Of a stretch of 16,054 bases of DNA, positions 90 through 12,307 are shown one piece after another. Each line of letters opens with the position of its first letter. The first letter of the stretch is position 1. Below the pieces are notes generated by a model that did no database searches, was not told the DNA's origin, and saw only the letters and a list, made by a program, of their open reading frames with translations. This stretch comes from Nitrospirota bacterium (lineage in GTDB: Bacteria; Nitrospirota; UBA9217), in the NCBI GenBank assembly GCA_029858565.1, contig JAOUEV010000068.1, positions 1 to 16,054 on the forward strand. Reading direction: 5' to 3'. The translations under genes were made by a program, and so were the position numbers.

Positions 90-1056
90 TTGACTAAAAA
101 CAAAATTAAAAAAGAACAGCTTGGTATTACTTTCGAAAAAGTAGTTGCCCATATTCAACAAAAAATGGATCCAAATTCTATAGTAACTCATAATGAGATT
201 TTACACGATAGAGTCGGAAATGATAGGCAATGTGACGTGGTAATAAGGGGGTCGTTTGCGGGTCGGCCTATTCTCGGCATTATGGAATGCAAAGACCTAA
301 ACAAAAAAGTCGGCCCAGATGTGGTTGAAGCCTTCTCCAAAAAGGCCGAAAATATCGGAGCTAATGTTCGGATTCTAGTTTCTAAAAAGGGATTTACTAA
401 GAGTGCTTTAAATATCGCTAAGCATGAAAATATCGGATGTCTATCTTTACTGCCAGAAGACCCAATGCAAGCAGGATTTAGTATTGGTGATACGTGGTAT
501 GGTGTAGTTCAAATTTGGGATAGTATTCGTTTAACTGTCAAATTCGCAACTTCTGTTGAGCCAATCAATACCTTTAGGCCCGATACCTTAAAAATTAATC
601 AACAACTAATTGGCTTATGGTTTATGAAAAAGCTGTTTACAGCATATAATGAGGTGCAGGTAGAAGGCAAGTATATGCTCGTGGTTAGCTTCCATGAAGA
701 GCAAAAAATAGAAATTGAAGGTCAAATTTTCTCTGTCCTAGGAGTAGCATGCTCTGCCGATAGGATTATTCGAAAAAAAAAAGAAGTGGATGGTTTGGTC
801 AGGTGACGCTTTTTATGATTGGCAATCTAAAAAATTTACAATTGCACCAAGTGGAACAATAGTAGGGAGTGCAATTAGGACAGATTTATCTGATTGGTTA
901 GATCACGATGGCGAAATTCCGAAGATTGGAGAGGGTACTGGCGTCGGCTTCATGAATGGCGTACTTGTTTATTCACAAAAGTGGAACCCTATTCAAGATC
1001 CAGAAGTCCCGGACTTGGAAGGCATTGGAACTGTCAGCTTTTCAAAGCAGGGATAG
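90..1056 (+). pseudogene. Mrr-like (PD-(D/E)xK) restriction endonuclease, frameshifted at the A10 run 773-782 (ORFs 90..806 and 790..1056)
   Basis: Mrr catalytic-domain pattern FEKVVAHI...RQCDVVI...IMECKD...VGPDVVEAF...LVSKKGFTKSA. Removing one A from the run gives ...IIRKKKKWMVWSGDAFYDW..., about 321 aa. Clearly more AT-rich than the rest of the window. TTG start uncertain. Confidence 0.75.
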
Positions 1057-1495: not shown

Positions 1496-1599
1496 TTAAC
1501 TAGCGAATGCCTCGGGATTCAGCCATCTGTTTCAAGACGAGAACACTACAACAATCACAGGAACACAGATAGACCCTAATGACTTCATGGAGAGACACT

Positions 1600-2779
1600 A
1601 TGACCCAGTCCAACAGCGCGCAACCGCCAAAAGAAACAGCCCTGCTTGAGATGCTCTCCCTTGTTTACGAGGAGATGGACATTAATGTCATTGAGGAGCG
1701 ATTTGTCGACCTGACCGCCGATATTTTCGGATTTGACCGGGTAGCCCTGTTTTTCGTGAAACACCGCAAAGGCATGCTGCAGGGTAAGTTGTGCAAGGGC
1801 TTTGTGCCCGGGACGATCAGTTCCCTGGAAATACCGGTTTCGACCGAGAACCTGCTTACCAGACCGCTGGTCACGGGGCTTCCCGTTTTTAGCAAGGCCG
1901 TGCCACATGATGACGACATCGTGAAATTAGGCCTGAAGAATTTCGCTCTTATTCCCATCGTGAGCAAGAAAAGGCTTTCCTGCTGGCAGATCAGAAAGTG
2001 CTATAAAGATGACTGCCCGGCGTTCGGCAAGAGATGGCTGCGCTGCTGGATGGTGCCGGGGACCAAGTGCGGCGATATTCCCCTTGATGATATTGAGCAA
2101 AAAGAGCAACTGTGCCGTGAGTGCGAGGTCTATGCCCAGTTGGAGGCCAATGCCGTGGAAGGGGTGATGATCGTAGACAACTCGATTTCGAACCGGCCGA
2201 TACCTCCGGAAGAGGTGGCGCTGCTCTCCATTGTTGCCCATGCGGTCGGAGGGGCGATCAACCATGCCAAGCTCTATTCCCGGACCTTGCGGGAGTCGAT
2301 CCACGACGAACTCACCGGGCTGTATAACAGGCGGTTTTTCAACGAACGGCTGTTGGATGAAGTGGAACGGACGCGACGGTATGGCGGATCCTTCAGCATC
2401 CTTATCTGCGACATTGACCACTTCAAGCGGATCAACGACACCTATGGCCATCCGATCGGAGACCGGGTGCTCGTCCAGGTGGCGTCCTTGCTCCAGAATA
2501 ACATCCGCAGCAATGACATGGCGTGCCGGTACGGCGGTGAGGAATTCGCGCTGTTGCTGCTCAATTCCGATAAGGACCTCCTGCCGCCTTGCGGAACAAC
2601 TGCGCGGGAAACTGGCGGCAAACGCCATGACCGACATTGGCGGCAATTGCATCACCGCAAGCTTCGGCGTCGCCTGTTTCGGGGAGGACTCCATTTCCTT
2701 TGAGGGGCTGGTGAACAAAGCAGACCAGTCGCTCTATCAAGCCAAGACCCATGGACGCAATCAGGTGTGGACATTGTGA
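1600..2779 (+). pseudogene. Sensor diguanylate cyclase (GAF with inserted Cys-rich two-CW domain, plus GGDEF), frameshifted near 2575
   Basis: GGAG at 1589-1592 before ATG 1600 (alternative ATG 1579). GGDEF hallmarks DELTGLYNRR, DIDHFKRINDTYGH, I-site RSND, RYGGEEF. The C-terminus (LAEQLR...ITASFGVA...KADQSLYQAKTHGRNQV) is in the frame of ORF 2231..2779. Confidence 0.85.
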
Positions 2780-2794
2780 TGCGGCAATGAGTAC

Positions 2795-2828
2795 GCAACA
2801 ACCGGTTTTTACGAAGCACCGTTGTTGT
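2795..2828. terminator. Imperfect hairpin between convergent genes
   Basis: GCAACAACCGGT ... ACCGTTGTTGT inverted repeat just after the cyclase stop codon. Confidence 0.3.
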
Positions 2829-2865
2829 ACGAGTCGGGAGGTGACAGGAGGCGCCCTTTATACCC

Positions 2866-3414
2866 TGCATATGCGGCCAGTCTTCGCCGTAGGCTCCGAT
2901 CTTGATCAAGGTCAGGTCAAAAGGCCCATAACGCCCGCCGATCTCTGCAAAATGATCAGCATATCCCGTGTCCCCGCTGTAGTATACGCTCCTGCTGTCG
3001 CTCCGCACGATCCAGCCTGCCCAGAGCGTTTCGTTCCTGTCGAACAACCCCCTGCCTGAAAAATGACGCGCAGGAACGCAGATGAAGGTCAAGTCTTCGA
3101 TCGTCACCTCTTCCCACCATGACAGCTCCCTGATCTGGCCTGCGGGTACGCCCCAATCCTTCAAACAGGGGCCGACGCCGGTGGTCACGAGGAATATCGT
3201 CCCTTTTCCTGACAAGGCCCTGATCGTGTCCTTTTCCAGGTGATCGTAATGATCATGGGAGATCACCACTGCATCGATGGCCGGCAGGTCTTCAACGCGG
3301 GTCGGCGAATAGTTCTTTTTCAGCCTGCACGGCCGGCGAGCAGGCCGCGCTGATGAGGAGGCTGAACAGGAGGCAAGAGGAAAGAACGGAGCAGGTGATC
3401 AACGAGTTCTTCAT
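2866..3414 (-). pseudogene. Degraded metallo-beta-lactamase-fold hydrolase (RomA/NAPE-PLD-like), lipoprotein-type signal
   Basis: Motifs LPAIDAVVISHDHYDHL, PARHFSGRG, YYSGDTGY, IGAY. Signal peptide MKNSLITC...ISAAC (ATG 3414, AAGGA upstream) is in another frame. The usual N-terminal WLGH/TDP region is absent and similarity ends after WPHM. Confidence 0.75.
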
Positions 3415-3479
3415 GCGGTCCTTGTCCCGACAACAAACCGGGCCGTGGGAGATAATCCGACGGCCCGGTACTTGCCAGG

Positions 3480-3611
3480 TTAGCGTTTCTTCATCTGCCC
3501 CGGCGCGGACTGTTTCTTGATCTGTCCCGGCGGAATATGGCCGCGGTGGTGACACCCCGCAAACACTCCCAGAAACAAGACCAGGGTGAACAATGCGATG
3601 ATCCTCGTCAT
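3480..3611 (-). CDS. 43-aa putative lipoprotein with two PGQxKK motifs
   Basis: Hand translation: MTRIIALFTLVLFLGVFAGCHHRGHIPPGQIKKQSAPGQMKKR*. AGGAGG at 3620-3625, hydrophobic stretch, lipobox FAGC. Confidence 0.75.
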   Translation of the reverse strand: MTRIIALFTLVLFLGVFAGCHHRGHIPPGQIKKQSAPGQMKKR

Positions 3612-10612: not shown

Positions 10613-10641
10613 TTGACCTTGGATATAACTACAATTATAAT
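10613..10641 (+). promoter_or_regulatory. Sigma70-type promoter of the rhodanese gene
   Basis: TTGACC (10613-10618), 17 nt, TATAAT (10636-10641). Confidence 0.75.
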
Positions 10642-10788
10642 AACAACTAAAGTTGCATATTGCATCGCTAAAAACCATCGCTTTCTCGACTAGTTGAAGA
10701 AAGGAGGAGCACGGGACAACCGGTCCGCATCAGCAGAAATCGGAGCATATCAGCCCCTGTCACAAAGAAAGGGCGGAAACGGAGGATC

Positions 10789-12213
10789 ATGATGCTTGGA
10801 AGTAAAAATATCAGTCTAGTTCCGGCGTTCACGCTGGCCGCCAGCCTGGCCATGGCAGTTATCGGCTGCCAGACCACGCCGGCAGCCAAACCGGCCACGG
10901 CAGCACCGGCAGCCCCGACCAGGCCGACCATGGCCAAGATCTGCGGCAACTGCCACACCCCCCAGGCCGGGAGCCTGCGAGGCAACTTTGAAGGTGTCGC
11001 ATACAAGACCCAGTCGATCCAGGTAAAGATCGACGACATCTCCGAGGTCATCCGCTTCGACAAGGCGACCCTCAAGATCGAGAATGTGAAGGGGGAGAAT
11101 ACCGAAGAACCCCTGCGCGACATCTCCAAGGGCAAGGAAGTGCGCGTCGAGTATACCGAGAAAGATGGCAAGAAGTTCGCCACGCTTGTCGTGGCAAAAC
11201 CGCCCATCAAGGTCGCCGCGGACAAGATCATGAGCACCGAGGACGTGGAGAAGCTTGTTGGCCTGGGCCCCGAGAAAGGCAAGTACACCCTGATCGACGC
11301 ACGGCCTCCTCTCAAGGCGCTGGAGGGCACCATCCCCACGGCCATCAACATCCCCTTTGTGGCGTTTGACAAGATGGTGGACAAGCTTCCGCAGGCAAAG
11401 GATGCGCTAATCGTCTACTTCTGTCAGGGCGTTACCTGAGCAATGAGCCCAAACTCCGCCAGTCGGGCGGAGAAGCTCGGTTACACCAATGTCAAGGTCT
11501 ACCATGACGGGATCCCTGTCTGGACAAAGAAGAATTTTACCGTACTGAACATAAAGCAGTTGAAGGAAGGCTGGATCGAGAAGGACATGCCCCACGTACT
11601 GGTCGACGTGCGGCCTGCATCGGAGGCAGAGAAAGGCTTCATCAAGGGCGCAGTAACGATTCCCGCAGCCGACGTGGCAAAGAACATCGACCGGTTCCCG
11701 CCCAAGGAGAAGAAACCGCCGATCATGATCTATGACCAGAAAAGCGGCGATGACGCCAAGGCTGCTGCGAAAGCGCTGGTCACGGCCGGATACCCGATGG
11801 TCAATGTGATCACCGGCGGATTCGATGCCTGGCAGGCCGCGGGATTCCCGACCGAGGCCGGCAAGCTCGCCACGACCATGGCCTACGTTCCCAAGCCCCG
11901 GCCCGGGACGATCGCGATCGACGAGTTCAAGAAGCTCGCCGCCAGCATCCCCCCTGATACGATCCTTGTCGATGTACGAAGCCAGGCTGAGGCAAATGAG
12001 GGCATGATCAAGGGCGCCAGGGTCATCCCGGATGCGGAGATCCTGGACCGTCTTGCCGAACTCTCCAGGGACAAGAGGATCATCACCTACTGCAATACGG
12101 GCGTGCAGGCGGAGATGACCTACCACAAGCTGAAGGAGAAGGGCTACAACGTGGCATTCCTGAACGCGAAGGTTTCGTTCGATGACAAGGGAAACTACGT
12201 GATCGAACCGTAG
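10789..12213 (+). CDS. Putative selenocysteine-containing lipoprotein: heme c motif plus three rhodanese domains (474 aa, Sec217)
   Basis: The two ORFs are in the same frame, separated only by TGA GCA. The TGA falls within rhodanese domain 1 (LIDARP...GTIPTAINIP...IVYFCQGVT-U-AMSPNSA...LGYTNVKVYHDG...W). Lipobox VIGC (C27), CGNCH (52-56), domain 2 loop IYDQKSG, domain 3 loop YCNTGVQA. GGAGG at 10781-10785. Confidence 0.88.
11444..11479 (+). promoter_or_regulatory. Bacterial SECIS-like hairpin
   Basis: Upper stem CTCCGCC (11454-11460)/GGCGGAG (11466-11472), loop AGTCG with G second, lower stem GAGC (11445-11448)/GCTC (11475-11478); 21 nt between TGA and loop. Confidence 0.82.
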
Positions 12214-12236
12214 GATGGGATCCTTATGAATCAGTG

Positions 12237-12270
12237 GGCCCCGGGATCAAAAGACTCCGGGGCCTTTTTT
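12237..12270 (+). terminator. Intrinsic terminator of the rhodanese gene
   Basis: GGCCCCGG ... CCGGGGCC followed by TTTTTT. Confidence 0.85.
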
Positions 12271-12307
12271 ATTCCAAACTCTGTTATCAATGCTTTTCTG
12301 CCGACAC

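Follow-up and report, generated by a model that had tools for sequence, protein, structure and literature searches.

An in-frame UGA, probably read as selenocysteine, within a gene for a CXXCH-bearing, three-rhodanese protein of a Nitrospirota bacterium

The DNA analyzed here is a stretch of 16,054 nucleotides (nt) from a Nitrospirota bacterium (contig JAOUEV010000068.1), referred to below, at its full length, as the window. Its forward strand carries two open reading frames (ORFs), 10789-11439 (216 amino acids, aa) and 11443-12213 (256 aa), which lie in one frame and are separated by TGA 11437-11439. Between ATG 10789 and TAG 12211-12213 this TGA is the sole in-frame stop. An earlier note, made from the sequence alone, had described the same arrangement and proposed a rhodanese-type selenoprotein hidden in the two ORFs; our frame analysis agrees, and reading through TGA 11437-11439 gives a protein of 474 aa, ...V-Y-F-C212-Q-G-V-T-U217-A-M-S-P-N-S..., where U stands for selenocysteine (Sec). 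The gene and its RNA-level features are as follows.

10789-12213, + strand: proposed single coding sequence of 474 codons plus TAG, with UGA 217 as Sec (from the frame and the conserved TGA column)
11437-11439, + strand: UGA, predicted Sec217 (TGA in this column in 38 distinct sequences; Cys in 120/120 full-length homologs)
11454-11472, + strand: hairpin resembling a selenocysteine insertion sequence (SECIS), with a 7-bp stem, 11454-11460/11466-11472, and loop AGUCG, 11461-11465 (from fold, conservation and covariation)
11445-11478, + strand: possible lower helix, GAGC 11445-11448/GCUC 11475-11478 (weak; from the minimum-energy fold)
10781-10785, + strand: Shine-Dalgarno-like GGAGG, read directly, 3 nt before ATG 10789 and 6 nt before ATG 10792
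10613-10641, + strand: promoter-like TTGACC-17-TATAAT, ~148 nt 5' of the start codon (11/12 consensus matches; a consensus match only)
12236-12271, + strand: terminator-like GC-rich hairpin, then UUUUUU (fold z only -1.6; missed by a consensus scan)

The promoter-like site and the terminator-like hairpin frame a single-gene unit. Direct reading of the sequence before ATG 11443 revealed no GGAGG-like Shine-Dalgarno, as the earlier note had also observed. When the Rhodanese profile PF00581 (102 positions) was compared with the read-through segment, positions 10-101 were covered at 50 bits. The first ORF alone covers the profile no further than position 70, and positions 77-101 are covered by the initial 38 residues of the second; the TGA therefore lies inside a rhodanese domain and bisects it, at C-Q-G-V-T-[TGA], where the earlier note had placed it. 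The neighboring genes in the window, ffh and the opp ABC transporter, are both on the minus strand. No tRNA was detected by a scan of the window, and no Rfam family reached its gathering score there.

The survey of orthologs covered the order to which the window's genome belongs (64 genomes, one family). A rhodanese match was present in 28 of them, at the 30 places listed. Exactly one in-frame TGA was found at 28 of these places, the window's own included, and the other two are fragments. In 28/28 order orthologs the TGA falls in one shared column, C-x-G-x-T-U. TGA forms were also identified in named public records labelled Nitrospirota, Thermodesulfovibrionales, Geobacter, Desulfosediminicola and Desulfobacterales. 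With these added, the number of distinct TGA sequences rose to 38, all with the codon in the same column; they come from independent assemblies, and where a search gave the protein identity to the window's product it was 33-77%. Of the 87 genomes in the family to which a Geobacter-labelled genome belongs, 26 gave a match; a single TGA was present in 14 of these, and 12 lacked a TGA. In one Desulfobacterales-labelled sequence (L114, 1130-1201 and 1442-1513), TGA was observed in the loops of two successive rhodanese domains, C-Q-G-P-T-U-K-L-S and C-G-G-Y-T-U-K-L-S, with a hairpin after each.

The earlier note had expected either Cys or TGA at position 217 of homologs, and the alignments contain just these: besides the 38 TGA sequences, each of the 120 full-length homologs taken from the protein collection, at 50-63% identity, has Cys in column 217. 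At the DNA level, 49 distinct segments with a Cys codon were obtained. The Cys-form records carry the labels Betaproteobacteria, Holophagaceae, Geobacteraceae and others. In the alignment of homologs, the frame downstream of the TGA is open and invariant residues persist in it. A quick maximum-likelihood tree of 73 rows, restricted to sequences of 380-560 aa (rows outside this range were dropped), requires at least 5-6 switches between Sec and Cys.

The stem of the hairpin (CUCCGCC/GGCGGAG) is perfect over 7 bp. The stem and AGUCG loop are as the earlier note had described them; the distance of 21 nt that it gave for the stem applies to the loop, the stem beginning 14 nt after the TGA. In bacterial SECIS elements the apical loop lies 16-37 nt away and has a G in its first two positions; by our own count, a G occupies the first or second loop position in 37 of the 38 TGA forms. 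With the 7-bp register kept fixed, six or more pairs are formed in 35/38 TGA forms versus 12/49 Cys forms (median 7 versus 4 pairs). Paired cells make up 92.1% in the 38 TGA segments, a share that falls to 38-56% once the partners are shifted by 1-3 columns, and the covariation score of the TGA alignment was reached by 0 of 500 shuffles. The hairpin is thus conserved and covarying in TGA forms only, which was the outcome of the covariation check proposed in the earlier note. The pair of columns 30 and 42 is CG in 22 sequences, UG in 9, UA in 5 and GC in 1, at synonymous third positions of Ser and Ala codons, while the third-position pair of columns 33 and 39 is invariant in 38/38 TGA forms. 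Both the positions that vary and the invariant closing ones fall at the third base of Ser, Ala, Arg/Lys and Ala codons, which places the constraint at the RNA level. The lower helix was rejected as a conserved element, its 3' side varying among orthologs. We propose that SelB with Sec-tRNA(Sec) would be recruited by the hairpin, which lies inside the coding sequence, and that UGA 11437-11439 would be read as Sec.

A search for selA, selB, selC and selD, also suggested earlier, recovered the complete machinery. In the window's genome, rated 100% complete, selA and selB are adjacent and score above curated cut-offs, tRNA-Sec was found at 64 bits (above cut-off), and there are two selD genes above cut-offs, each with one in-frame TGA. 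In both selD genes (G000:C3:2376-3290, L010, and G000:C14:90529-91446, L011) the TGA stands near the N-terminus, in ...G-U-A..., and the hairpin after it is spaced much as in the rhodanese gene; that of the C3 copy has a 7-bp stem and a 5-nt loop.

Taken together, the TGA orthologs, the Cys forms, the hairpin and the machinery make it very improbable that the TGA is a true stop, the mark of a pseudogene or an error of sequencing. By this comparison of sequences, TGA 11437-11439 almost certainly codes for selenocysteine, and the earlier proposal of a 474-aa selenoprotein with a C212-x4-U217 loop holds. That picture is refined by the protein-level analysis: the product is predicted to be exported, bears a CXXCH motif and contains three rhodanese domains. 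Its features are as follows.

10789-10869, + strand: signal peptide, by inspection, with a lipobox end of the lipoprotein type, V-I-G-C27
10927-11208, + strand: N-terminal small beta-barrel, residues ~47-140, resembling an oligonucleotide/oligosaccharide-binding (OB) fold or CusF (from models, predicted local distance difference test score, pLDDT, 86-91)
10942-10956, + strand: C52-G-N-C55-H56, a CXXCH motif and putative covalent haem c site (from the alignment)
11272-11529, + strand: rhodanese domain 1, residues 162-247, containing the UGA (PF00581; alignments to rhodaneses of the PDB run across the UGA)
11422-11424, + strand: codon of Cys212, at the canonical catalytic position right after a beta-strand (aligns with the loop Cys of 6mxv, 6bev and 3nhv)
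11578-11841, + strand: rhodanese domain 2, residues 264-351, with Asp316 at the place of the Cys (D316 in 115/121 rows)
11911-12156, + strand: rhodanese domain 3, residues ~375-456, with Cys435 (12091-12093) in a canonical C-x-T-G-x-R-A loop (C435 in 121/121 rows)

A structure model of the full protein (pLDDT 91, predicted template modelling score 0.81) has a short helix at the CXXCH motif, a six-stranded barrel formed by residues 62-136, and then the three rhodanese domains. The whole protein matches PF00581 in three stretches at 156.8 bits, above the gathering score. A fold search with the full-length model returned only generic multi-rhodanese proteins. On inspection, a lipobox-like end was also seen in one ortholog of the same genus (L025), and for the majority of the others the end is an AxA-type site of signal peptidase I. 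The product would be exported across the inner membrane and, in this organism, would probably be lipid-anchored at Cys27.

The CXXCH motif starts ~25 residues after the lipobox Cys27. Of the 121 alignment rows, 119 have C52 and every one has C55 and H56; the CXXCH sub-family, which is defined by having the motif, has all three residues in 63/63 rows. A CXXCH motif in an exported protein is normally loaded with haem, and six matches to the cytochrome c assembly family (PF01578) were found in the window's genome. The motif on the OB-like barrel thus probably carries one covalently bound haem c, as judged from the sequence. When the N-domain was folded alone (pLDDT 86), the best Foldseek match was CusF (E 6.6e-4, target TM 0.70). 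Compared with OB folds, it gave a best VIA-align Z of 7.1, within the common-fold range. These matches between modelled folds are too weak to assign a function to the N-domain. DUF7283 is matched in the N-domain of one homolog (P0121, E 7e-7), but not in the window's own. Members of a sub-family with three rhodaneses and a C-x4-U-x-x-S loop, but without CXXCH, were also observed (L147, 369-1775; L148, 36-1466; L050), and one CXXCH-less member is a second copy in a Desulfosediminicola genome that also has the CXXCH form.

Cys212 is Cys in 120/121 alignment rows, and in the model it directly follows a strand (207-211), with a helix beginning at residue 219. In alignments with solved rhodaneses, U217 takes the place of the canonical Arg or else falls within an insertion of two residues. 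Sec217 lies five residues past Cys212, in a loop longer than that of ordinary rhodaneses, so that the two should form a Cys-Sec chalcogen pair. Domain 2 is presumably inactive, judging by its Asp316. The loop of domain 3 has Gln440 in the window's protein.

It is highly probable, in our judgement, that the locus is one gene in which the hairpin directs insertion of Sec217, and that its product is an exported, CXXCH-bearing, three-rhodanese protein of 474 aa. Several observations weigh against this reading or against parts of it. We infer Sec insertion, export, lipidation, haem attachment, substrate and partners from sequence. Taken alone, the window's hairpin has only a modest folding advantage over shuffled sequences (z -2.1, matched by 5 of 200 shuffles), and the Rfam search around it returned only two chance snoRNA matches with E above 2; the strength of the SECIS case is its conservation, not its single-sequence fold. 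Four of the seven stem pairs are invariant, which is uninformative either way, and as they never vary the covariation rests on three pairs. The stem overlaps the conserved codons S-A-x-x-A-E, so its conservation is partly protein-driven. Direct read support for the TGA is thin. In the N-domain, no cytochrome Pfam match was found for the window's protein, the fold is not a known cytochrome fold, and among the 63 CXXCH rows no conserved His or Met was found that could act as a distal haem ligand, the only conserved His, Met, Cys or Lys residues being C52, C55, H56, K45, K73, K114 and K137. With a non-cytochrome fold and no conserved distal His or Met, the CXXCH motif could be a metal site. As for function, the rhodanese gene stands alone between ffh and opp, so any functional link is borrowed from distant Cys-form relatives. 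A gene for an ExtKL/MccSep-type selenoprotein and a DUF3373 gene are present in the window's genome, on other contigs and unclustered. The association of the rhodanese with the ExtKL type (25/28 order genomes with the rhodanese versus 21/36 without, by our own count; 89% versus 58%) is weak and confounded by relatedness.

In the window's order of bacteria the rhodanese gene stays between ffh and opp, a placement that is uninformative for function. In three Cys forms (with Geobacteraceae or delta proteobacterium labels), the order was found to be a DUF3373 porin-like gene, a small ORF, the rhodanese and, further on, a molybdopterin oxidoreductase. In two of these loci (L062 and L072) a cytochrome lies between the rhodanese and the oxidoreductase; its best NCBIfam match is the octahaem tetrathionate-reductase family, at 152-158 bits against a cut-off of 375. 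In L105 the best match of the molybdopterin oxidoreductase is PhsA, the thiosulfate reductase, at 503 bits where the cut-off is 694; the gene downstream of it is NrfD. In betaproteobacterial Cys forms, the rhodanese is located downstream of a molybdopterin oxidoreductase. From these neighbors, which are porin-like, multihaem-cytochrome and thiosulfate/polysulfide-reductase-like, we infer a periplasmic sulfane-sulfur relay or reductase.

The ExtKL-type gene of the window's genome matches NF040886 at 574 bits (cut-off 250) and contains one TGA, followed by a hairpin weaker than that of the rhodanese gene. This gene (G000:C2:7522-8775; locus L143, minus strand 1483-2790) stands alone between beta-ketoacyl synthase and PBP-like genes. 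The type occurs in 46/64 genomes of the order, and several copies directly adjoin a DUF3373 gene. Two matches in related genomes (G033:C5:54107-55381 and G023:C60:986-2104) have two in-frame TGA codons instead of one. The DUF3373 porin-like gene of the window's genome (G000:C62:42769-44010, L146) is preceded by an ArsR-type regulator and followed by an AhpC/TSA-type redoxin.

In the mechanism that we envisage, Cys212 would be the place where a persulfide forms, and the Cys212/Sec217 pair would accept sulfane sulfur from polysulfide or thiosulfate. The sulfur would then be resolved via a Cys-S-(S)-Se-Sec intermediate. The haem, Cys435 of domain 3, or both, could serve as an electron relay or a sulfur relay, and the protein might feed, or work beside, periplasmic sulfur-compound reductases. 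The chance that the protein has a role in periplasmic polysulfide or thiosulfate metabolism is, in our estimate, even at best.

The alternative that survives best concerns this role. The selenoprotein might instead handle selenium or tellurium (by periplasmic selenite reduction or selenium delivery) or take part in thiol-disulfide redox defence, with the CXXCH motif perhaps binding a metal. In the accessible part of one report, the Geobacter porin ExtI is linked to selenite and tellurite reduction, and the rhodanese-like ExtH belongs to the same cluster (PMC5877670); selenite-dependent methyl viologen oxidation by MccSep is likewise described in the available text of another (PMC13510729). The resemblance of the N-domain to the metal chaperone CusF and the redoxin and ArsR-type regulator beside the DUF3373 gene also speak for this alternative. 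Against a selenium or tellurium role, the Cys-form relatives adjoin a PhsA/PsrA-like molybdoenzyme, NrfD and an Otr-like cytochrome. The CusF match is weak, and haem is the normal cargo of an exported CXXCH motif in a genome with cytochrome c assembly genes. We therefore consider this alternative doubtful.

That TGA 11437-11439 is a true stop is very improbable. The locus would then encode two proteins: an exported one of 216 aa with CXXCH and a cut-short rhodanese domain, and one of 256 aa with two rhodanese domains. Translation with table 11 does yield two ORFs, and the public gene calls list the halves as separate entries, P0133 and P0131, just as the earlier note had foreseen for ordinary gene callers. 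Such a stop would cut the rhodanese domain at about profile position 70 of 102 and leave the second ORF with neither a signal peptide nor a Shine-Dalgarno. It would also be at odds with 38 sequences in which the frame, the column of the TGA and the hairpin after it are all retained, and with homologs that are one continuous protein with Cys at the column.

Equally small is the probability that the UGA is read as Cys, Trp or another standard residue, through near-cognate suppression or a variant code. The identity of residue 217 as Sec is indeed a prediction from sequence. Yet with table 11, further genes of the window give long ORFs, the genome has the complete Sec machinery, the hairpin is conserved at SECIS distance only in TGA forms, and Cys in homologs is the usual Sec/Cys signature.

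A pseudogene, or an assembly or sequencing error for TGC or TGT, can be dismissed as negligible: one base change does turn a Cys codon into TGA and direct read support is slight, but the same TGA recurs in 38 distinct sequences from independent assemblies, the frame beyond it is open with its invariant residues, and an independent DNA contig bridges the site. This contig (run X4, record 22) covers 11305-11572, with no change at 11437-11439 among the differences listed. Run X1 contains the stretch identically, but this DNA may have been derived from that run. A relative is represented by contigs from the RNA library of run X2 (~92-95% alike), which cover 10699-11278 and 11491-12077, and do not cover the TGA.

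Reading the locus as one selenoprotein gene has consequences for annotation. The public protein collection has over 115 clusters whose products, 255-257 aa long and 66-80% identical to the protein, span its C-terminal 54%, as would be expected of products that start right after the TGA. The N-terminal CXXCH half is thereby orphaned in public annotation. No NCBIfam model reached its cut-off in a scan of the read-through protein. With split gene calls and no NCBIfam model, the selenoproteomes of Nitrospirota-labelled and Desulfobacterota-type genomes are undercounted. In anaerobes that have an MccSep-type polysulfide reductase as well, the protein would combine sulfur-transfer domains, a Cys-Sec pair and a putative haem in the periplasm; it is a concrete candidate with a plausible link to sulfur respiration.

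Three other features of the window were observed. At the left end, an ORF at 90-806 (+) has an Mrr-type restriction endonuclease domain (PF04471, E 3e-8) and lies beside housekeeping genes. A GGDEF ORF at 1579-2703 (+) matches only positions 2-93 of the 161 in its profile, and a metallo-beta-lactamase-fold ORF at 2652-3269 (-) begins at profile position 35, with a short ORF (3292-3555, -) just upstream. Both may be frameshifted or truncated genes.

A rhodanese selenoprotein type has already been catalogued, of which the window's protein is a further member; the word "hidden" in the earlier note therefore applies to the annotation of the gene and not to the type. In the portion available of a 2026 review, five rhodanese selenoprotein forms are tabled, among them form 1 (PF00581, UxxS, example WP_010941598.1), a CxU form (NF041203) and TsoB (NF045694, UxxxxU) (PMC13188914). 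The same example is given in the available text of a 2022 review (PMC9312934), and both reviews, as far as seen there, credit form 1 to Zhang and Gladyshev 2005, the bSECISearch paper (PMC13188914, PMC9312934). The window's protein resembles form 1 in its single Sec in a PF00581 domain, within U217-A-M-S220, where S220 is invariant, although the two were set together by motif and description only. Like form 1, it is predicted from a SECIS and a Cys/Sec comparison. Unlike form 1, it has a CXXCH motif, putative haem, export and a three-domain build, none of which is mentioned in the available parts of the reviews (PMC13188914, PMC9312934). A Cys-form homolog with 54% identity (P0102) is named "sulfur transferase selenocysteine-containing protein" at source. 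Our literature searches, whose scope was article text without supplementary files, returned no description of a CXXCH-rhodanese selenoprotein, its CXXCH domain, its export signal or its gene context.

TsoB is a rhodanese/DsbD fusion-like selenoprotein; residues 147-254 of the window's protein, which include domain 1, match TsoB model positions 45-158, and the C212-x4-U217 spacing is that of UxxxxU. The match is at 63.7 bits against a cut-off of 805, however, and the window's protein has no DsbD part, a single Sec and Cys at the first position. The rhodanese_LYCAU model (NF041203, CxU) gave 72.9 bits against a cut-off of 115, with its best match on domain 2, and differs from the C-x4-U motif. 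In the BH2092 rhodanese (solved structures 3nhv and 3o3w), the loop C-W-G-P-A-C aligns residue for residue with C-Q-G-V-T-U. BH2092 is a single domain of ~126-144 residues with Cys instead of Sec, and its entry title names no function.

ExtH is the rhodanese-like lipoprotein of the Geobacter extHIJKL cluster, and 10 of 18 ext-like regions have a different rhodanese-like protein, according to the available parts of the ExtH literature (PMC6148476, PMC5877670). Compared by description only, as found in those parts, the window's protein is similarly of ~49 kDa and probably a rhodanese lipoprotein, and its Cys-form relatives adjoin a DUF3373 porin-like gene, a small ORF and a multihaem cytochrome, as in extHIJK. 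In contrast to extH, the window's gene is located next to ffh and opp and not next to genes for an ExtI-like porin or an ExtKL-like cytochrome. The same excerpts do not present ExtH as a selenoprotein, nor as a protein with a CXXCH motif (PMC6148476, PMC5877670).

A parallel in chemistry is MccSep/ExtKL, a periplasmic pentahaem cytochrome c selenoprotein shown, in the available text, to be a polysulfide reductase, for which a Sec-Se-(S)-S-Cys intermediate reduced by haem was proposed (PMC13510729). The window's protein would likewise combine, in the periplasm, haem c (here putative), Sec and Cys. It differs in having an OB-like barrel and rhodaneses instead of a multihaem cytochrome, and one motif instead of five haems; in MccSep, the Cys is a ligand of the haem (PMC13510729). 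As a tentative suggestion, the CXXCH sub-family may represent an undescribed periplasmic selenoenzyme, with a single haem c on an OB-like barrel wired to the Cys-x4-Sec pair of a lengthened rhodanese loop, that acts as a reductase or oxidative coupler of polysulfide or thiosulfate. If this is true, the protein would be a haem-driven enzyme and not a passive sulfur carrier, possibly a missing periplasmic sulfur-transfer component of sulfur respiration, and would represent a second, structurally unrelated solution to the haem, Sec and Cys chemistry of MccSep.

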